NCBI GenBank assembly: GCA_937146765.1
Contig: CAKZRP010000068.1
Span: forward strand, 4,530-68,529
Length of the DNA: 64,000 nucleotides
Direction: 5' to 3'
Origin: an uncultured Rhodobacteraceae bacterium
GTDB taxonomy: Bacteria; Pseudomonadota; Alphaproteobacteria; Rhodobacterales; Rhodobacteraceae
Shown here: positions 44,487-54,250 of the stretch, in pieces
How the letters are laid out: every line of letters begins with the position of its first letter
Numbering within the stretch: position 1 is the stretch's first letter
Notes under the pieces: generated by a model
Databases searched by the model: none
What the model was told of the DNA's origin: nothing
What the model saw: only the letters and a program-made list of their open reading frames with translations
Translations under genes and position numbers: made by a program

Positions 44487-45671
44487 TCACCGCGTCAGCT
44501 GACGCATTCCCCGCTCCAGCCCATCCAGCGTCATCGGGACCATGCGGTCCTCGAAGATCTCGCGGATCATCTGGATCGAATGGGTATGGGCCCAGTATTT
44601 CTCTGGCAGCGGGTTGATCCAGAGGTTCGCGCCCCACTGCGCCCTTGCCCGCTCCAGCCAGACCTGACCGGACTCGGCGTTCCAATGTTCATTGGCGCCG
44701 CCCGCATAGGCGATCTCATAGGGGCTCATCGAGGCATCGCCCACGAAGATGCATTTGTAATCCGGCCCATAGGTCCGCAGCACCTCATGGGTCGGGGTCT
44801 GCGCGTCCCAGCGGCGGCGGTTGTCGCGCCAGACCCCTTCGTAGAGGCAATTGTGGAAGTAGAAATACTCCAGATGCTTGAACTCGGAGCGCGCGGCGGA
44901 GAACAGCTCCTCCACCACTTTGATATGCGGGTCCATCGAGCCGCCCACGTCGAGAAACAGCAGCACTTTCACCGCATTATGGCGCTCTGGCCTCGTTTTT
45001 ACATCGAGGTAGCCGTGTTCGGCGGTGGCGCGGATGGTGCCGTCGAGATCGAGCTCTTCCGCCGCCCCTTCGCGTACCCAGCGGCGCAGGCGTTTCAGAG
45101 CGACCTTGATGTTGCGGGTGCCAAGTTCCACCTCACCATCGAGGTTTTTGAACTCGCGCTTGTCCCAGACCTTGACCGCGCGCTGGTGGCGGCTTTCCTG
45201 CTGGCCGATCCGCACCCCTTCGGGGTTGTAGCCATAGGCGCCAAAGGGCGAGGTGCCGGCGGTGCCGATCCATTTGTTGCCGCCCTGATGGCGGCCTTGC
45301 TGCTCCTTCAGGCGCTGTTGCAGGGTCTCCATCAGCTTGTCAAAGCCGCCCAGAGCCTCGATCTCGGCGCGTTCTTCGGCGCTGAGGTGCTTTTCGGCCA
45401 TCTTGCGCAGCCACTCTTCGGGGATGTCGACCGCCTCCATCACGGCGGAGGCCGGGATCTGGTCGAGCCCTTCAAAGGTCGCCGCAAAAGCGCGGTCGAA
45501 TTTGTCGAGGTTGCGCTCGTCCTTCACCATCACCACGCGGGCGAGGTAGTAAAAGGCTTCCACGTCATAGGTGGCGAGCCCGGCCTTCAGCCCCTCGAGA
45601 AAGGCGAGATATTCGCGCAGGGAGACCGGCACCGCGGCGGCGCGCAGATTCTCGAAAAAGGGTTGGAACAT
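44487..45671 (-). CDS. VWA-domain protein (CoxE-like)
   Basis: N-terminal LREYLAFLEGLKAG segment and a C-terminal VWA with MIDAS-like LFLDVGGSM. It shares an operon with a MoxR ATPase. Confidence 0.8.
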   Translation of the reverse strand: MFQPFFENLRAAAVPVSLREYLAFLEGLKAGLATYDVEAFYYLARVVMVKDERNLDKFDRAFAATFEGLDQIPASAVMEAVDIPEEWLRKMAEKHLSAEERAEIEALGGFDKLMETLQQRLKEQQGRHQGGNKWIGTAGTSPFGAYGYNPEGVRIGQQESRHQRAVKVWDKREFKNLDGEVELGTRNIKVALKRLRRWVREGAAEELDLDGTIRATAEHGYLDVKTRPERHNAVKVLLFLDVGGSMDPHIKVVEELFSAARSEFKHLEYFYFHNCLYEGVWRDNRRRWDAQTPTHEVLRTYGPDYKCIFVGDASMSPYEIAYAGGANEHWNAESGQVWLERARAQWGANLWINPLPEKYWAHTHSIQMIREIFEDRMVPMTLDGLERGMRQLTR

Positions 45672-45716
45672 CTTAACCTCCGAAGGGGCGAGCCGCGCCC
45701 GCCGTCAGAGCAGCCG

Positions 45717-45884
45717 TCAGAGCATCATCCGGTGGGTCACGATGGTCGCGATGAGGCCGATCATACCAAAGATGATCGCGTAGACAGCCCCGTATTGCAG
45801 CATATCGGCGAGATTGCCGCCACGTTTGCGGGCGGTAAAGGCGCCGAGGGCCGCGCCAAAGAGCAATGCGAAGATGACGATCAT
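45717..45884 (-). CDS. Unlisted 55-aa two-TM micro-protein MIVIFALLFGAALGAFTARKRGGNLADMLQYGAVYAIIFGMIGLIATIVTHRMML
   Basis: Hand-translated; it falls below the ORF-track cutoff. It has two hydrophobic helices separated by a basic loop and lies between the lipoprotein and VWA genes on the same strand. The SD is weak. Confidence 0.45.
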   Translation of the reverse strand: MIVIFALLFGAALGAFTARKRGGNLADMLQYGAVYAIIFGMIGLIATIVTHRMML

Positions 45885-45988
45885 AGGGGGAGTTTCCGCT
45901 TCCTGTGGCCTTGCGCGCCGCCCGGGTCCGACAGAAGGGGCGCGGTGTTGACCCTGCCTATAGCGCGCCGCGCCCGCGAGTGCAAAGG

Positions 45989-47452
45989 TCAGCGCATGAG
46001 GCCGCCGCTCCCTGCGGCAACCTCACGCAGCTGACTGTCCACCGTGGCCTCGGTGCCCATGCCGTAGAGCGCCCAGCCGATGCTGTCCGAGCGCAGCACG
46101 GCGGCCTCGCGCGAGAGGCCGCGCAGATCGGCGAGATGGGATTTCAGCATCAGCAAGGTCGACAGCAGGGCGGCGTTCTGCCCGGTTTCCGCCGCAGGGA
46201 TGGCGCGGGCCAGAAGCGCCTCGGCCCGGTCGAGGTCCCCTGCGGTCAGCGCGGCGGCGGCAAGGCGCGACTGGATCAGCGCCCGGTGACCGGCAAGGTC
46301 GCGGCCTGCGCCGAGATAGGACAGCGCGGTGCGGAAATGGGCCTGGGCAAGGGCGGGATTGCCCGCCTGCTGCGCGCGCCCGAGGAGGAAATGGCCAAAG
46401 GCGCGGCGGTGATCCTTCCAGCCTTCGTCGCGGGCGATGCGGGCGGCGGCATGGGCGGCGCGCAGCCTCTCGCTGTCGTTGGCGGTGGGGCCGAGCGCGG
46501 TCTCCACCGCCTTGATCCAGGCGCGCGGGGTCTCGGGCAGGGGCGCGGGTGTGCGCCCCTCGCCACCTGGGTTGAGTCGGGCCAGCAGGGCGGGCAGGCG
46601 GGCGGCCACCTCGGCGCGGCTCAGGCCGGTGCGCAGGGCAGGATCATAGGTGGCACGCAGGATCAACATATCAAAGCCGGTGAGCACCGCATGGACATTG
46701 TCGTCGTTGAAGACCGAGTCGGGCAGGCGGTAGAGGTCGTTCAGCGGCCCAAGCGCCTGCGCCAGTTCCTCGTGCAAACAGTCGCGCAGTTCCTGTGGGC
46801 TGACGTCATTGGGCACGAAGATCGCCAGCCGGTCGCGGCTGCGCAGCGCCTTCCAGTCGGTCTGGGCGGCGTTGCGGTTGTGGCGGTATTCTTCAAGAGA
46901 GCTGACATTGGGCACCACGAAACAGGCGGCCTGCGGCAGCACGCGCTGGATGCGGTCGCGGCTCACCGCCTCGATGGTGATGGCGCCGGGGGTGCCGGTG
47001 GCGGCAAGGCGGATGTCGATCCCCGCCTCGCCGCGCAGCCGTGCCAGCAGCGATTCGAGATCCGGGCGCAGGGTCGGGGTTACCGCCCCGGTGAGCGCCA
47101 CGGTCACTGGGGTTTCGAACCGGGTCAGCACCGGCAGGGTGCTGCCGCCCTCCATGCGGAAATGCAGGTCGAGGAAATCGCGCGCGATATCGGCATTGGC
47201 GCGCAGCGGCGGGGCGGCGGGGCGGGTCGGGAAGGTTCGGATCGGCGGCAGGGCTACCGTCACCGTGGCGGCGGCGCGCGAGGGCGGCGGACTCGACGGG
47301 CTGCACCCGGCAAGCAGGAGGGCCATCACCAGAGCCATCACTGAGGCCAATACAGGGGCAAGCCAGAGGGCGACCGGCCGGGGGGCGGGGGCAGAGGATC
47401 TGACAAACCGGGTCAGGGGCCCGGGCCCAAACGAAAGTGTCTTCAAACGCAC
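45989..47452 (-). CDS. Lipoprotein with DUF2927-like N-domain and helical (TPR-like) C-terminal half
   Basis: Lipobox LLLAGCSPS. The central segment HEELAQALGPLND resembles DUF2927 proteins (from memory). The C-terminal half is Ala/Leu/Arg-rich and helical. Confidence 0.55.
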   Translation of the reverse strand: MRLKTLSFGPGPLTRFVRSSAPAPRPVALWLAPVLASVMALVMALLLAGCSPSSPPPSRAAATVTVALPPIRTFPTRPAAPPLRANADIARDFLDLHFRMEGGSTLPVLTRFETPVTVALTGAVTPTLRPDLESLLARLRGEAGIDIRLAATGTPGAITIEAVSRDRIQRVLPQAACFVVPNVSSLEEYRHNRNAAQTDWKALRSRDRLAIFVPNDVSPQELRDCLHEELAQALGPLNDLYRLPDSVFNDDNVHAVLTGFDMLILRATYDPALRTGLSRAEVAARLPALLARLNPGGEGRTPAPLPETPRAWIKAVETALGPTANDSERLRAAHAAARIARDEGWKDHRRAFGHFLLGRAQQAGNPALAQAHFRTALSYLGAGRDLAGHRALIQSRLAAAALTAGDLDRAEALLARAIPAAETGQNAALLSTLLMLKSHLADLRGLSREAAVLRSDSIGWALYGMGTEATVDSQLREVAAGSGGLMR

Positions 47453-47661
47453 AAGTCCTGCAAACCCGGCCCGGAGGCGGCCGGTGTTTCGCTTCAGAAT
47501 ACTTCAATCAAACGAGCTTGCGGCAAGGTTTTGAACAAATCCTTGCCGCAAGCGGTGTTTCTGCCACGCGGGGCGCGCTGGTCCGGCTCTGCGGGGGCGG
47601 AAATTGCCCCCGGTTCCCCCGCTTCCCCAAGAGTGCCCAGGGCCGGAGCGCAAAAGCCCCT

Positions 47662-48501
47662 TTAGCGGCCGCGGCGGGCCATGAAGGCGAGCCGTTCAAA
47701 CAGATGCACGTCCTGTTCGTTCTTCAGCAGAGCGCCATGCAATTTCGGCAGCGCATTGGCGCCATCGCGTTTCAGATCCTCGGGCGACAGATCCTCGGCC
47801 AGCAGCAGCTTCAGCCAGTCGATCACCTCGGAGGTGGAGGGTTTCTTCTTCAAGCCTTGAGTCTCGCGGATCTCATAGAACTGGGTCAGCGCGGCACTCA
47901 GCAGGTCGGGCTTGATATGGGGGTGATGCACCTCGACGATCTTCTTCATCGTCTCGGCATCGGGAAAGCGGATGTAATGGAAGAAACAGCGGCGCAGAAA
48001 GGCGTCGGGCAGTTCCTTTTCATTGTTGGAAGTGATGATCATCACCGGGCGGTGACGTGCCTTGATGGTCTCGCCCGTCTCGTAGACGTGGAACTCCATC
48101 TTGTCGAGCTCCTGCAACAGGTCGTTGGGGAACTCGATATCCGCCTTGTCGATCTCGTCGATCAGCAGCACCACCTTCTCGTCCGCTTCAAAGGCCTCCC
48201 AGAGCTTGCCTTTCTTGATGTAGTTCTTCACCTCATGCACGCGCTCTTCGCCAAGCTGGCTGTCGCGCAGGCGGGAGACCGCATCGTATTCGTAAAGCCC
48301 TTGCTGGGCGCGGGTTGTGGACTTCACGTTCCACTCGATCATCCGCAGGCCAAGCGCCTCGGCCACCTGTTTGGCGAGCTCGGTCTTGCCGGTGCCGGGC
48401 TCGCCCTTGACGAGCAAAGGACGCTCCAGCGTGACGGCGGCATTGACCGCGATCTTCAGGTCCTCGGTGGCGACATAATCCTTAGTGCCCTGAAACTGCA
48501 T
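47662..48501 (-). CDS. MoxR-family AAA+ ATPase (CoxD-like)
   Basis: Walker A GEPGTGKT, Walker B VVLLIDEIDKA, 279 aa. Confidence 0.9.
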   Translation of the reverse strand: MQFQGTKDYVATEDLKIAVNAAVTLERPLLVKGEPGTGKTELAKQVAEALGLRMIEWNVKSTTRAQQGLYEYDAVSRLRDSQLGEERVHEVKNYIKKGKLWEAFEADEKVVLLIDEIDKADIEFPNDLLQELDKMEFHVYETGETIKARHRPVMIITSNNEKELPDAFLRRCFFHYIRFPDAETMKKIVEVHHPHIKPDLLSAALTQFYEIRETQGLKKKPSTSEVIDWLKLLLAEDLSPEDLKRDGANALPKLHGALLKNEQDVHLFERLAFMARRGR

Positions 48502-50615: not shown

Positions 50616-51422
50616 TCAGAGGTCGAGGTCGACCCAGATCGGCACGTGGTCGGAGGGTTTCTCGCGGCCACGGATCTCCTTGTCGATCTGGCAATCGCGC
50701 AGCAGGTCCGCCGCCTGAGGGGTCAGCAGAACATGGTCGATGCGGATGCCGTCATCGCGGTTCCAGGCTCCGGCCTGATAGTCCCAGAAGGTATAGTGCC
50801 CCGGCCCGAGGGTGCGGCTGCGGAAGGCCTCGGTGAAGCCCAGGTTGACGATGCGCTGGAAGGCGGCGCGGCTCTCGGGGCGGTGGAGTGCATCCTCGCG
50901 CCAGGCCTCGGGGCGTTTGGCATCCTCCGCCTGCGGGATGATGTTGTAATCTCCCGCCATCAGCGCCGGCATCTCCTCCGCCAGCAGTTCTGCCGCGCGC
51001 GCCTTCAGGCGTTCCATCCAGGCCAGCTTGTAGGCGTATTTGCCGCCCGCTACCGGCACGCCCGTCTCGGTGAGCTCCACCGGGTTGCCGTTGGGCAGGT
51101 AGAGACCGCAGATGCGCAAGGCCTGCTTGCCCACCACTGTGGCCTCGATCCAGCGGGCCTGTTCGTCGCTGTCGTCGCCAGGCAGGCCGCGGCGCACATC
51201 CTCCAGCGGCAGTTTTGAAAGGATCGCCACCCCGTTGAAGCTCTTCTGGCCGTGGGTCTCCACATTGTAGCCCCGCTCCTCGAAGAGCTCGCGCGGGAAG
51301 GCCTCGTCCACCGACTTGATCTCCTGCAGCACCACCACATCGGGCTGTGCCTCGTCGAGCCAGTCACAGAGCGCGGTGACGCGGGCCTTGATGCCGTTGA
51401 TGTTGAAGCTGGCGATCTTCAT
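50616..51422 (-). CDS. xthA: Exodeoxyribonuclease III
   Basis: MKIASFNINGIKAR, VVVLQEIK and the C-terminal SDHVPIWVDL. The start is taken at the internal Met 51422. Confidence 0.9.
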   Translation of the reverse strand: MKIASFNINGIKARVTALCDWLDEAQPDVVVLQEIKSVDEAFPRELFEERGYNVETHGQKSFNGVAILSKLPLEDVRRGLPGDDSDEQARWIEATVVGKQALRICGLYLPNGNPVELTETGVPVAGGKYAYKLAWMERLKARAAELLAEEMPALMAGDYNIIPQAEDAKRPEAWREDALHRPESRAAFQRIVNLGFTEAFRSRTLGPGHYTFWDYQAGAWNRDDGIRIDHVLLTPQAADLLRDCQIDKEIRGREKPSDHVPIWVDLDL

Positions 51423-51713
51423 GGCGGTCTCCTTCGCGGGGGCTTGGCCGGGGTCTTGCAGGTCTATCGCGCAAAACGCCTGGTGCCGCAAGCCGGGTGG
51501 CCGCGCGGGTGGGGGCGAGGACGCGCGGGAGGGCGAGGCTGGTGGCCACGGAATCCGAAGTTGCCAACCCGCCGCCCTTGGCACGCGGAGCGAGCAGAGA
51601 ATCACCATTCTGCAACCCTCCGGCATCCTTGCAGGGAAGTTATTCAATTCCATAATGGCGCTTTGCAATAATGGATGTGTGAATAAATTTGTGGATTTCC
51701 TGTGGGCAACTTG

Positions 51714-51723
51714 AATTGCAATT
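51714..51723. promoter_or_regulatory. AATTGCAATT palindrome in the AT-rich region upstream of the repeat-peptide ORF
   Basis: Perfect 10-bp palindrome, identical to 13921-13930. It lies about 136 nt upstream of the ATG at 51859, within a strongly AT-rich tract (about 51640-51860). Confidence 0.4.
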
Positions 51724-51858
51724 AAATATCAATTTATTATTAATCAATATTAAGGTAAGGTTTATTGTTTAAATCAGATTGGCGATCACAATTCGCTTGA
51801 ATTATTTTCTGTGGATGGCAGGTTTTGGGTATCGAATTTTTAGACAGGGAGAAATGTC

Positions 51859-52089
51859 ATGGTTGCACTGAAAGAATCCGCCCAGGTTTCCGACGCAAAC
51901 CTTGCGGCTGGCGGCGACGCCTTCGCAGGTGAGCATGTGGGGCTGTTCAGCTCCACCTGTCTTGGCGGCGAACATGCAGGAGAGCAGGTATCTCTTTACA
52001 GTTCCACATGTATTTCTGCGGAACACCGCGATATGCATACCGGTGACGCCACCTTCATGGTTTCGTCGACCTGCCTGAAGGGCCTCTGA
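51859..52089 (+). CDS. 76-aa peptide with three (G/A)EH...(F/Y/V)SSTC(L/I) units; candidate multi-core precursor peptide
   Basis: The sequence is MVALKESAQVSDANLAAGGDAFA-GEHVGLFSSTCLG-GEHAGEQVSLYSSTCIS-AEHRDMHTGDATFMVSSTCLKGL. SD agggag lies 7 nt upstream. The three SSTC motifs use different codons (AGC TCC ACC TGT / AGT TCC ACA TGT / TCG TCG ACC TGC), so the nucleotide differences are synonymous only in this frame. The antisense frame reads TGGA/TCGT/AGRR. Confidence 0.55.
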   Translation: MVALKESAQVSDANLAAGGDAFAGEHVGLFSSTCLGGEHAGEQVSLYSSTCISAEHRDMHTGDATFMVSSTCLKGL

Positions 52090-52127
52090 CATCCGGCTGC
52101 GGCCACGGCTGTCAGGATGCAAAATCA

Positions 52128-52155
52128 CGGGATCCGGATAGGTTTTCGGATCCCG
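52128..52155 (+). promoter_or_regulatory. Perfect 9-bp-stem hairpin between the peptide ORF and the downstream gene
   Basis: CGGGATCCG-gataggtttt-CGGATCCCG, located 39 nt after the peptide stop and 24 nt before the next start. No U-tract follows. Confidence 0.5.
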
Positions 52156-52178
52156 AAATTGGATTTCAAAAAGAGTGA

Positions 52179-53282
52179 ATGGGGGTGAAGTCTCAAATGG
52201 GGCAAGTGCTTTCTTTCGCGGCCGCGCGGCGGCAGGAACCGACCTCCCGCTTTCGGGGATTGATCGAGAGTTTCGGCTCCTGTCGAAAGGACAGGCTGGA
52301 TGTTCTGTGGATGAAAGAAAACGCGGAACTGCTGAATGTTTTTGAAACCTCTGGTTGTAAAATCAGCGAGTCGGAGCTTGATCCGCTGGTGCCCTTTTAC
52401 GAGGGCAGCCTGCGTCATTTGAATTTCTTCCGTCAATACTACAGGTTCATCCTCTCGATCAGCCTTGATCTGGAGGATCTGGGCCTGCCCGGCGACCGGG
52501 GCGAGGTGATGGCGCAGTGGGTGGCGCAACAGGATGTGATCGGCAGTGAGCTGTCGGATCTGCAACGGGCAGAGGGGCGTCGGTTGCTGGCGCGGCGCGG
52601 CGTGTCGATCCCCGCGGGGGCGCGGCATCGAGGGGCGGACGCGGGGTTGGATGACCGCCTGCGGGCCTTTCTGCGCCGCAGTGCGACCTTTGCGGTGCCC
52701 AACCGCAAGGCGGCCTATGAATTGACCCATGTGATCTTCTACCTGACCGAATATGGGCGTCGTCCGTTGTGTCTCGAGGCGGAGGAGCGGCAGAGCCTGA
52801 TGTTTGCCGGTCTGGTGGCCTATCTGGACCAGGACCTCGACCTGCTGGCGGAGATCTGCATTTCCCTGCGCTTCTGTGACGCGCCGGTTCCGGCGAGTTG
52901 GCAAGCCTGGTTGAGCCGTGGGGCCGGAGCGTTTCGGATCATTCCGACGCAGGGGCGGGTGGGGGCCGATGACTACCATCCGTATTTCATGAGCAATTGG
53001 TTTCAACTTCTGGTTGGACGCGAAGCCTTTTCTGGGGCAGACTTGCGCGGGTCAGTTGTGATTGAAGGGCCGCGTGGCCCAGGTGCGTTGAGAGGAGTGT
53101 CCATGGCCCTCTATACCTTGCTGGACCAGATGCCGGGCCACTGGAGCCGGTTGCGCGATCCTCTCTATCTGGCCCTGAGCGAGGAAGACGGCGCGCTTTT
53201 GCATGAGGTCGAGACCAGCACGCCGGTCTTTGAAGCTTTCTTTGAGAATTTTGCCCGGTTTGGCCAGGTGGGCGTCGCATGA
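52179..53282 (+). CDS. 367-aa cytoplasmic protein of unknown family, partner of the repeat peptide
   Basis: Long ORF with SD aagag before the ATG at 52179 (alternative ATG at 52197). No signal peptide or TM. I recognise no domain. It contains ExxH/DxxH-type motifs (YELTHVIFYLTEYG, ADDYHPYF). Confidence 0.65.
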   Translation: MGVKSQMGQVLSFAAARRQEPTSRFRGLIESFGSCRKDRLDVLWMKENAELLNVFETSGCKISESELDPLVPFYEGSLRHLNFFRQYYRFILSISLDLEDLGLPGDRGEVMAQWVAQQDVIGSELSDLQRAEGRRLLARRGVSIPAGARHRGADAGLDDRLRAFLRRSATFAVPNRKAAYELTHVIFYLTEYGRRPLCLEAEERQSLMFAGLVAYLDQDLDLLAEICISLRFCDAPVPASWQAWLSRGAGAFRIIPTQGRVGADDYHPYFMSNWFQLLVGREAFSGADLRGSVVIEGPRGPGALRGVSMALYTLLDQMPGHWSRLRDPLYLALSEEDGALLHEVETSTPVFEAFFENFARFGQVGVA

Positions 53283-54250
53283 GCCCGCTGGTGACAGGGG
53301 TGATGGCCGTGCTGGTCTATACCGGGCTGATCGCTACGGCGGATGGCATCACCAAGATGATGGCCTCCGCCTTTGCGCCTGCGCAGCTCTTTGCGGTCTC
53401 GGGTCTGCTGGTGGCAGGCTTCTGCGTTCTGGCCAGCAAGATGCGGCCGGTCGCGACCGGGCTGGGCACCCTCTGTCCGCGCGCGATGGCGGTTCGCTCC
53501 CTCGCCACGGTTCTGGCCTGTACCTGTTTCTTTTATGCCTTCCGGGCGCTGGAACTGGCGGAAGTCTTTGTCTTTGTTGCCCTGATGCCGGTGATGGCCG
53601 CGCTGTTGTCGGCACTGATCCTGAAGGAAAGCGTGCGGCCTGCGGTCTGGCTGGCCATCGCACTCGGGGCGGTTGGGCTTTTGGTGATGCAGCCGGCCCT
53701 CGCGGTGGGAGACACCATGGGCTCCTTTCTGGCGCTTGGGGGTGTCTGCTTCGGCACCCTGTCCATCGTGATGGCGCGCTACATCAGCCGGTTCGAGAGC
53801 AATGTGCTGGCGCAGGTCTTTTATCCCAATCTGACGCTGGGACTGGTCATGCTCTGCGTGCTGCCCTTTGTCTGGGAGCCGATGGCGGCGATGGATATGG
53901 GCTGGGTCGGCATCTATGCGGTGGTGCTGTTCGGCGCGCGATGGTTGCTGGTCACGGCGCTGCGTCACCTGCCGGCCTGGACAGTGACGCCGCTCTTGAA
54001 TCTTCAATTTGTCTGGATGGCCTTGATCGGACTGCTGATCTTTGGCGAGGTGCCGGCGCTGGCAACCTGTCTCGGCATGGCGGTGATCGCGGCCTCGGGG
54101 GTCTTCTTGGTCTGGGATCAGGCCCAGGGTCGGGACCGGCTTGCCGCGCCCGCAGGTGGCTGGCCGCCGCGGCGGGGTCGGCTTCCAGCCCGCAGCTTTC
54201 CGGAAAACGAGGCGCTGCGGTCGCGCACCAGTCTGCGGATGCGGCGTTGA
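53279..54250 (+). CDS. DMT-superfamily (EamA-like) transporter
   Basis: About ten hydrophobic helices in two EamA-like halves. The ATG overlaps the preceding stop (ATGA). The Arg-rich C-terminal tail may be over-extended. Confidence 0.8.
   Translation: MSPLVTGVMAVLVYTGLIATADGITKMMASAFAPAQLFAVSGLLVAGFCVLASKMRPVATGLGTLCPRAMAVRSLATVLACTCFFYAFRALELAEVFVFVALMPVMAALLSALILKESVRPAVWLAIALGAVGLLVMQPALAVGDTMGSFLALGGVCFGTLSIVMARYISRFESNVLAQVFYPNLTLGLVMLCVLPFVWEPMAAMDMGWVGIYAVVLFGARWLLVTALRHLPAWTVTPLLNLQFVWMALIGLLIFGEVPALATCLGMAVIAASGVFLVWDQAQGRDRLAAPAGGWPPRRGRLPARSFPENEALRSRTSLRMRR

Follow-up and report, generated by a model that had tools for sequence, protein, structure and literature searches.

A tandem-repeat peptide gene paired with DUF6902 across Rhodobacterales: a candidate multi-core peptide substrate and its putative enzyme

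Introduction

What is the role of a short open reading frame (ORF) that encodes a threefold repeat peptide and stands directly before a gene of the DUF6902 family? The pair lies in a 64,000-nucleotide stretch of DNA from an uncultured Rhodobacteraceae bacterium (GenBank assembly GCA_937146765.1, contig CAKZRP010000068.1, positions 4,530 to 68,529 of the forward strand), which is called the window here and supplies the coordinates below. An earlier note, made from the letters of the window, had proposed that the small ORF encodes either a multi-core peptide precursor or a metal-binding peptide. Here we report that the peptide gene and DUF6902 form a vertically inherited module with fast-diversifying cores and no described function in every Rhodobacterales genome fetched, and we argue that it is best read, with a probability of roughly 0.55, as a substrate-enzyme pair of a new type resembling the multi-core peptides that are ribosomally synthesised and post-translationally modified (RiPPs). 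Our confidence in any specific chemistry for DUF6902 is much lower. Bacteria of the Roseobacter group rank with the most abundant heterotrophs of the sea, and much work has gone into the chemical signals that they exchange with algae and among themselves.

The repeat-peptide gene

The full product of the small ORF is a peptide of 76 amino acids (aa), MVALKESAQVSDANLAAGGDAFAGEHVGLFSSTCLGGEHAGEQVSLYSSTCISAEHRDMHTGDATFMVSSTCLKGL, in which a leader-like segment is followed by three tandem units, of the kind exemplified by the single unit AFAGEHVGLFSSTCLGG. Its features, with the units placed in the register of a 242-unit alignment described below, are the following:

51846..51851, + strand: Shine-Dalgarno (SD) sequence agggag, 7 nucleotides (nt) 5' of the ATG
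51859..52089, + strand: repeat-peptide gene, 76 aa, with a 23-aa leader-like N-terminus (MVALKE...), three units and the tail LKGL
51928..51960, + strand: unit 1, GEHVGLFSSTC (residues 24-34)
51979..52011, + strand: unit 2, GEQVSLYSSTC (residues 41-51)
52042..52074, + strand: unit 3, GDATFMVSSTC (residues 62-72)

Each unit closes with an SSTC block (51949-51960, 52000-52011 and 52063-52074), and the three blocks are written in different codons (AGC TCC ACC TGT, AGT TCC ACA TGT and TCG TCG ACC TGC); the antisense frame over the same positions reads TGGA, TCGT and AGRR. The block positions, the difference between their codons and the antisense readings had been given in the earlier note and proved exact on recomputation, as did the limits of the ORF, the SD sequence and the count of third codon positions that are G or C (GC3, 46/76). 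The note had further held that the blocks are conserved at the peptide level, and the homologues bear this out: in nine database homologues (68-76 aa, 58-93% identical) all three SSTC blocks are invariant, and across 10 orthologous loci the third codon positions vary most, 62 of them being variable among 70 aligned codons, as against 32 and 34 of the first and second positions. Over the same loci the mean proportion of synonymous differences (pS) was 0.62 and that of nonsynonymous differences (pN) 0.21, with a nonsynonymous to synonymous rate ratio (omega) of ~0.1-0.4 where the synonymous rate (dS) was unsaturated. The codon-position pattern and the excess of pS over pN point to purifying selection on the ORF instead of a chance frame, and this comparative evidence marks the small ORF as a genuine gene, in all likelihood translated, that is constrained in this frame. 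A non-coding or antisense explanation was rejected on the same in-frame pattern and on the lack of any Rfam match at gathering score in the whole window.

The earlier note had each unit open with (G/A)-E-H. Three units there are, but the conserved opening is G-[ED], at G24, G41 and G62; the triplet A54-E55-H56, taken for the start of the third unit, belongs to a spacer, the real start in the 242-unit register being G62-D63. In the clade of the window peptide C34, C51, C72 and H39 are invariant and H60 is nearly so, and 2-5 additional residues extend beyond the last unit, which in the window peptide ends M-V-S-S-T-C and is followed by LKGL.

When the window peptide and five to six homologous or distant small ORFs were scanned against Pfam and NCBIfam, no meaningful family came up; NCBIfam held no match to the window peptide at E <= 1 and, for five homologues, none of relevance at E <= 10. 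NCBI labels the peptide of Tritonibacter horizontis, 68% identical to that of the window, as a 'DUF6749 family protein', a label that was not reproduced, the Pfam copy searched having given no match for the peptides.

Conservation of the pair across Rhodobacterales

A genome scan with the DUF6902 protein yielded 63 loci in Roseobacteraceae and Paracoccaceae (38-72% identity), with genera that include Tritonibacter, Epibacterium, Phaeobacter, Pseudophaeobacter, Sulfitobacter, Planktotalea, Salipiger, Lutimaribacter, Cribrihabitans and Gemmobacter. A repeat-peptide ORF stands directly upstream of DUF6902, on the same strand, in 63/63 of these fetched loci; among them the pairing is strict. As far as each contig extends, the gene order is xthA(-), peptide(+), DUF6902(+), an EamA gene(+) in 29/63, erpA(-), dgt(+) and argS(+). 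The idea of a multi-core precursor, raised in the earlier note, is supported by the comparison that the note itself had suggested: every genome fetched has a repeat-peptide ORF beside its homologue of the 367-aa gene, the peptides carry 3 to 14 units with variable spacers, and the repeats are kept at the protein level.

A profile was built from 242 units of 61 loci, anchored by 3-mer recurrence only. Its consensus is G-x-x-[VT]-x-[LM]-[FY]-[ST]-[ST]-x-x, or in full G-[EDA]-x-[VT]-x-[LM]-[FY]-[ST]/P-[ST]-x-[SACL], and the counts are G 233/239, [VT] 204/241, [LM] 228/242, [FY] 199/242 and second [ST] 236/242; the aromatic position is Val or Ser in some units. Ala-Pro often comes directly after a unit in this alignment, and in most homologues the end of the last unit is also the end of the peptide. 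The N-terminus M-[TVS]-A-L-x-K is kept in many clades, and a GGAG-type SD sequence lies 5' of the homologous ORFs wherever the start can be placed.

The core sequence, by contrast with these kept positions, is hypervariable between clades of Rhodobacterales. To the three ...SSTC units of the window clade correspond FSSGS (x3-7), FSSGA (x3-5), FTSGS (x4), FTTSC (x3), FTTGL (x3) and FLSHA (x5) elsewhere, as well as FTSGC, FSSGC, FPSGS, FTSSS, FSSWS and FFSCS, and Gemmobacter peptides carry LSPSC (x6-8); some peptides mix core types, for example FSSGS with FTTSC. In Salipiger thiooxidans DSM 10146 (locus L032, 3022-3918) a reading frame of 298 residues holds 14 FTSAA units, in which near-identical copies of types A and B alternate, revealing recent tandem duplication of two-unit blocks. 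With tandem cores, conserved flanks and a variable core number, the architecture is, at the level of sequence comparison, that of a multi-core precursor.

This breadth of cores bears on the second proposal of the earlier note, namely that the Cys, His and Glu residues of the units chelate Cu or Zn, whether or not the peptide is also modified. The invariant cysteines and histidines of the window clade favour it, as does the Fe-S cluster insertion gene erpA, which comes directly after EamA. Their conservation does not extend beyond that clade, however: most members have no Cys or His at all (FSSGS, FSSGA, FTSAA, FTTGL and FPSGS cores), erpA stands there within a conserved order of housekeeping genes that runs on into dgt and argS, and no DUF692/MbnB, MbnC or metal-regulator gene lies nearby in the syntenic loci. 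We regard metal binding as a very improbable account of the family.

The peptide and DUF6902 also evolve, as far as sequence identity tells, faster than the genes around them: mean identity to the window is 47% for DUF6902 and 74-84% for XthA, ErpA, Dgt and ArgS. In the window the GC3 of the peptide gene is 46/76 = 0.61, compared with 0.71 for DUF6902 and 0.75-0.87 for neighbouring genes, and the earlier note had taken this low value as a sign of foreign origin. That view is not sustained. The GC3 of DUF6902 is below that of its flanks in 53/63 genomes, a conserved trait of the module and hence no sign of recent foreign origin, and the slot between xthA and erpA is constant in 63/63 fetched genomes, from Tritonibacter and Sulfitobacter to Gemmobacter. 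Foreign origin was consequently rejected; the fixed slot indicates a vertically inherited module and not a foreign island.

The DUF6902 protein

If the peptide is a substrate, its constant partner is the natural candidate for the enzyme:

52179..53282, + strand: DUF6902 protein, proposed peptide-modifying enzyme, 367 aa; Pfam DUF6902 E = 7.6e-121

The listed ORF starts at 52179, and the start conserved in 41 homologues is M7, an ATG at 52197 preceded by gggggtga; judged by this conservation the true start is probably M7, giving a protein of 361 aa. The full-length window protein scores 403.7 bits against the DUF6902 model. It also matches DUF6895 over residues 79-246 (67.6 bits against a gathering cut-off of 23.8, E = 1.5e-18), a stretch of ~160 residues that contains most of the family-invariant positions, and ten distant DUF6902 members pass the DUF6895 gathering score as well. 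The DUF6902 score being far above the DUF6895 score, the protein belongs to a sister family and not to DUF6895 proper. The title of a paper by Shi et al. (ACS Catal 2026, 16:1757; cited in PMC13352647 and PMC13453073) calls DUF6895 a lasso-peptide epimerase.

The family is small: among 1.84 billion representative proteins searched with its profile, only 211 clusters were related to DUF6902. AlphaFold2, run on a 42-sequence alignment, gave a confidently predicted all-alpha model of 21 helices with a mean predicted local distance difference test score (pLDDT) of 91.6 and a predicted template-modelling score (pTM) of 0.90. Foldseek found no relative of this model in the PDB (best E = 0.3, template-modelling score (TM) <= 0.26) and, with PDB and BFVD together, nothing better than E = 0.3 and TM 0.31; a PDB sequence search with the DUF6902 profile returned nothing real. 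The model thus predicts a novel all-alpha fold without a PDB relative. Across 18 DUF6902 sequences, down to 21% identity, R89, Y180, T183, H184, F187, G193, A214, D221, L222, L223, E225, W241 and H267 are invariant and K46, E50, E132 and Y266 nearly so. The ionisable ones among the invariant residues would fit an active site, possibly a metal site.

One could also imagine that DUF6902 is a processing peptidase that cleaves after each F-x-S-x-x and frees unmodified units, for example as signals. Most homologues end with their last unit, and Ala-Pro usually comes after the internal ones, so that such cleavage could give all units the same C-terminus; the one remaining gene of the module, moreover, would encode an exporter. 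The window clade, with its residues beyond the last unit, departs from this pattern, and DUF6902 has no HExxH motif and no Ser, Cys or Asp protease family or fold in Pfam, NCBIfam or Foldseek. A peptidase therefore strikes us as distinctly unlikely, and a modifying enzyme is preferred.

Distant and degenerate copies of DUF6902

What happens to DUF6902 where the repeat peptide is missing? Two loci of the Donghicola type (L074, 6673-8005, from Donghicola sp., and L075, 2129-3462) have a DUF6902 ORF in the same xthA-erpA slot with no repeat-peptide ORF upstream of it. Their DUF6902 ORFs are intact and highly divergent, and they have lost R89, Y180, T183, H184, D221, E225 and H267; the invariant residues have decayed where the peptide has been lost. 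Since the two copies are similar to each other, the gene may have another role there and need not be a pseudogene.

Outside Rhodobacterales the partner is of a different kind. In Scandinavium sp. (Enterobacteriaceae, GCA_044900545.1; L070, 6791-8029) DUF6902 begins 24 nt after a 61-aa ORF, and a second sample (L076) has the same arrangement; this small ORF contains ...VTPSSVICDSDHYCFVVR. The Scandinavium pair is an AT-rich two-gene cargo between gpS (tail) and gpV (baseplate) of a P2-like prophage. In three Logan metagenome contigs (L071, 5229-8747; L072; L073) DUF6902 overlaps the stop of a 64-aa ORF, which in two of the three (L072 and L073) is itself closely preceded by a paralogue of 61 aa. 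The neighbours of the metagenomic pair include a reverse transcriptase of 293 aa (RVT_1), a domainless protein of 411 aa, an SH3_3 protein, an Mrr_cat nuclease and a resolvase, in surroundings that look like a mobile or defence-island setting. Searches for the distant DUF6902 by tblastn in phage and plasmid collections, INPHARED and IMG/VR gave no match, and blastn of complete E. coli genomes was empty.

The distant genes of Enterobacteriaceae and metagenomes thus follow ORFs of 61-64 aa at 0-24 nt, and these small ORFs are related to each other and have no repeats. The pairing of DUF6902 with a small ORF upstream of it is therefore older than the repeat architecture. The enterobacterial C-terminal TPS... 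segment and the Rhodobacterales unit cannot be aligned by eye, and for this reason we claim no homology between them.

These settings are what an alternative without catalysis would draw on. The repeat peptide would be an intrinsically disordered, multivalent ligand, its units docking motifs, and DUF6902 an all-alpha binder, whether a chaperone, a sequestering or regulatory partner, or part of a toxin-antitoxin or conflict module. Conflict systems are common in places such as a P2-like prophage or beside reverse-transcriptase, Mrr and resolvase genes; the top Foldseek matches of the model, insignificant as they are, are armadillo-, HEAT- and TPR-like peptide-binding solenoids; and neither a cofactor nor a catalytic motif was recognised in DUF6902. 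Yet R89, Y180, T183, H184, D221, E225 and H267 are mostly polar or ionisable, more as in an active site than in a binding groove, and DUF6902 is homologous to DUF6895, reported, at least by title, as an enzyme. The Rhodobacterales locus lies outside defence islands, a translationally coupled exporter is present in 29/63 loci, and neither PADLOC, with zero matches for the window DUF6902, two distant DUF6902 proteins, the small ORFs and EamA, nor PHROGs gave any match. Pure binding is in our judgement unlikely, and we continue with the substrate-enzyme pair as the preferred reading.

The transporter gene and the flanking genes

In the window the pair is followed by a third gene:

53279..54250, + strand: EamA/DMT-family transporter, proposed exporter, 323 aa; Pfam EamA E = 3e-15

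Its start overlaps the stop of DUF6902 as ATGA, and it lies directly downstream of DUF6902 in the 29/63 genomes that have it. We examined precomputed Pfam hits for all genes within ~8 kb in three syntenic genomes. No known class-defining RiPP enzyme was among them, as the earlier note had said of the window: there was no PatA/G, ATP-grasp, LanB/C/M/KC/L, YcaO, DUF692/MbnB or radical SAM gene. Nor was a lasso cyclase, leader peptidase or RiPP recognition element (RRE) found in the window locus or the syntenic loci. The flanking families were VWA_CoxE, DUF2927, AAA (MoxR-like), DksA, FAD_binding_3, Exo_endo_phos, Fe-S_biosyn, HD, ArgRS, SPOR and GH3, besides weak BNR/Sortilin hits in a truncated gene and a Peptidase_M48 gene cut off by the edge of one locus; a few small ORFs had no Pfam hit.

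A few kb upstream of the peptide gene, at 44487-48501 (- strand) of the window, lies a conserved block in which genes for VWA_CoxE and DUF2927 proteins, with a small ORF between them, are joined by one for a MoxR-type AAA ATPase; the Pfam assignments are taken from the syntenic loci. FxSxx-COOH peptide systems of Actinobacteria are linked to vWA-MoxR systems (PMC7159879). DksA, the FAD monooxygenase and XthA lie between the block and the peptide gene, however, and the proximity may be coincidence.

Non-coding features

The remaining features of the locus are non-coding:

51669..51858, + strand: AT-rich intergenic promoter/regulatory region, 190 nt, GC 0.32 compared with 0.65 for the window
51711-51740: weak sigma-70-like match, a single promoter-like site
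52086..52155, + strand: two stem-loops between the peptide gene and DUF6902, at 52086-52115 and, with an 11-bp stem, at 52128-52155

The number of promoter-like sites is no higher than the shuffle expectation. In 10 orthologous loci the upstream region has conserved blocks that include TTTGCA...GTGTGAAT...TGTGG...TGTGGGCAA, AATCAATTTATT, TTAAT-N5-ATTAAKG and CTTGA...TGGCAG; their conservation suggests that the blocks in 51669-51858 are putative binding sites of a regulator. The palindrome TTAAT-N5-ATTAA was rejected as a family-wide element, being found in 3/64 loci with start-finding unreliable for about one-third of loci. The ORF of XthA (exodeoxyribonuclease III) that bounds the region is listed at 50616-51668 (- strand; 350 aa, TTG start). 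The conserved protein has 268 aa and begins with the ATG at 51422 (MKIASFNING...), so that the listed ORF extends far upstream of it. The extra N-terminus is probably untranslated, in which case the real intergenic region 5' of the peptide gene is ~436 nt long.

The stem-loops at 52086-52155 have a minimum free energy of -37.6 kcal/mol (z = -3.2), and a terminator-like match at 52144-52158 overlaps them on the 3' side. A strong hairpin occurs at the equivalent place in 10/10 close orthologues (z -2.4 to -5.4), in differing sequence. Such structures could be a partial terminator or could stabilise the mRNA; together with the ATGA overlap, the conserved hairpin between the two genes is an operon feature.

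A small ORF with stable hairpins and a terminator-like site between it and the start of the next gene is also what an attenuator would look like, in which a leader peptide rich in Ser, Thr and Cys, as the units are, tunes DUF6902 and EamA according to the charging of the corresponding tRNAs. Some EamA/DMT transporters export cysteine, O-acetylserine or threonine. The proposal nevertheless leaves unexplained why the 11-residue units conserve Gly, Val/Thr, Leu/Met and Phe, none of them the regulatory amino acid, why a peptide can reach 298 aa and 14 units, and why core variants such as FLSHA and FTSAA exist; EamA is absent in 34/63 loci, and purifying selection acts over the whole peptide. We rejected it as a poor fit to the family-wide data and give it hardly any credence.

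The favoured reading

How might a multi-core RiPP-like substrate-enzyme pair work? The precursor would consist of the N-terminal leader-like segment and, in the window, three tandem units ending [LM]-[FYV]-S-S-T-C. DUF6902, in the cytoplasm, would be the dedicated modifying enzyme of the repeat peptide and would work on every unit, its most likely target being the Ser/Thr that follows the aromatic residue at a distance of two and is near-invariant, or neighbouring residues. By analogy with the homologous DUF6895, the reaction could be isobaric, for example an epimerisation. Processed, unit-sized products may then leave the cell via the translationally coupled EamA transporter where it is present. 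We infer from the genes that DUF6902 acts on the peptide as an enzyme, as we do its chemistry, the proteolytic release of products and their export.

Several points weigh against this reading. DUF6902 has no catalytic fold or cofactor motif recognisable by Pfam, NCBIfam, PDB profile search or Foldseek, and the epimerase function of DUF6895 is taken from the title of a paper. Neither a peptidase nor an RRE domain nor an ABC exporter of the peptide type occurs in the locus, and 34/63 loci lack EamA. EamA/DMT carriers, moreover, usually transport small metabolites. The distant small ORFs are non-repeat and share, by eye, no common register with the Rhodobacterales unit, and biosynthetic clusters are not usually inherited vertically in one fixed place between housekeeping genes.

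A bolder version can be put forward tentatively, at somewhat less than even odds. The peptide and DUF6902 would be the minimal genes of a new RiPP class ancestral to the Roseobacter group, in which an all-alpha enzyme of a kind not seen before iterates over 3-14 tandem [FY]-x-[ST]-x-x cores, perhaps by cofactor-independent or metal-dependent epimerisation of the Ser/Thr motif; short modified peptides would be set free to serve as a physiological signal or metabolite and not as an antibiotic, and relatives of the enzyme would accompany single-core small ORFs on a P2-like prophage and beside mobile-element genes (resolvase, reverse transcriptase). If the module is confirmed, a RiPP-like class and an enzyme fold would be gained, both new, DUF6902 and the peptides that NCBI labels DUF6749 would have a function, and the peptide-epimerase chemistry lately reported for DUF6895 would reach far more genomes, of ecological importance at that. 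As the module has two or three genes, it can be tested directly by co-expression.

Comparison with known systems

DUF6902 and DUF6749 are database names only, and the window protein is a full-length member of the former; our literature search found no paper on either family, no function, no link between the two, and nothing relevant on the core motifs or on multi-core RiPPs of Rhodobacterales. The closest comparison for the putative enzyme is the DUF6895 lasso epimerase, known to us in that role by title. DUF6902 passes the DUF6895 gathering score and both are encoded beside a gene for a ribosomal peptide, but the DUF6902 model fits the window protein better (404 compared with 68 bits), the locus is without the lasso cyclase and leader peptidase, and the candidate substrate is a tandem-repeat peptide, not a lasso precursor.

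For the peptide, one comparison is with the FxSxx-COOH peptides of Actinobacteria (TIGR04268), which are associated with an FxsB radical-SAM/SPASM maturase and an HExxH protein (PMC7159879). Both are small and fast-diverging with an aromatic-x-Ser-x-x motif at the carboxyl end, most Rhodobacterales homologues ending F-S-S-G-S, F-T-T-S-C, F-L-S-H-A or F-T-S-A-A. In contrast, the motif of Rhodobacterales is tandemly repeated and, in the window clade, followed by a short tail; no NCBIfam model matches the six peptides tested, and neither the locus nor its syntenic counterparts have a radical-SAM/SPASM or HExxH gene.

The architecture finds its nearest parallel in multi-core RiPPs such as the cyanobactin precursor PatE, the microviridins and other graspetides, and the repeat precursors of plants and fungi. 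Their PatA/PatG proteases, ATP-grasp ligases, BURP and DUF3328 proteins are absent from the three syntenic genomes, and the partner here is a protein without a solved structural relative. What the Rhodobacterales peptides share with them is the layout of the precursor itself: several near-identical cores on one peptide, a conserved flanking recognition sequence, variable spacers, and a core number that changes from species to species, here between 3 and 14.

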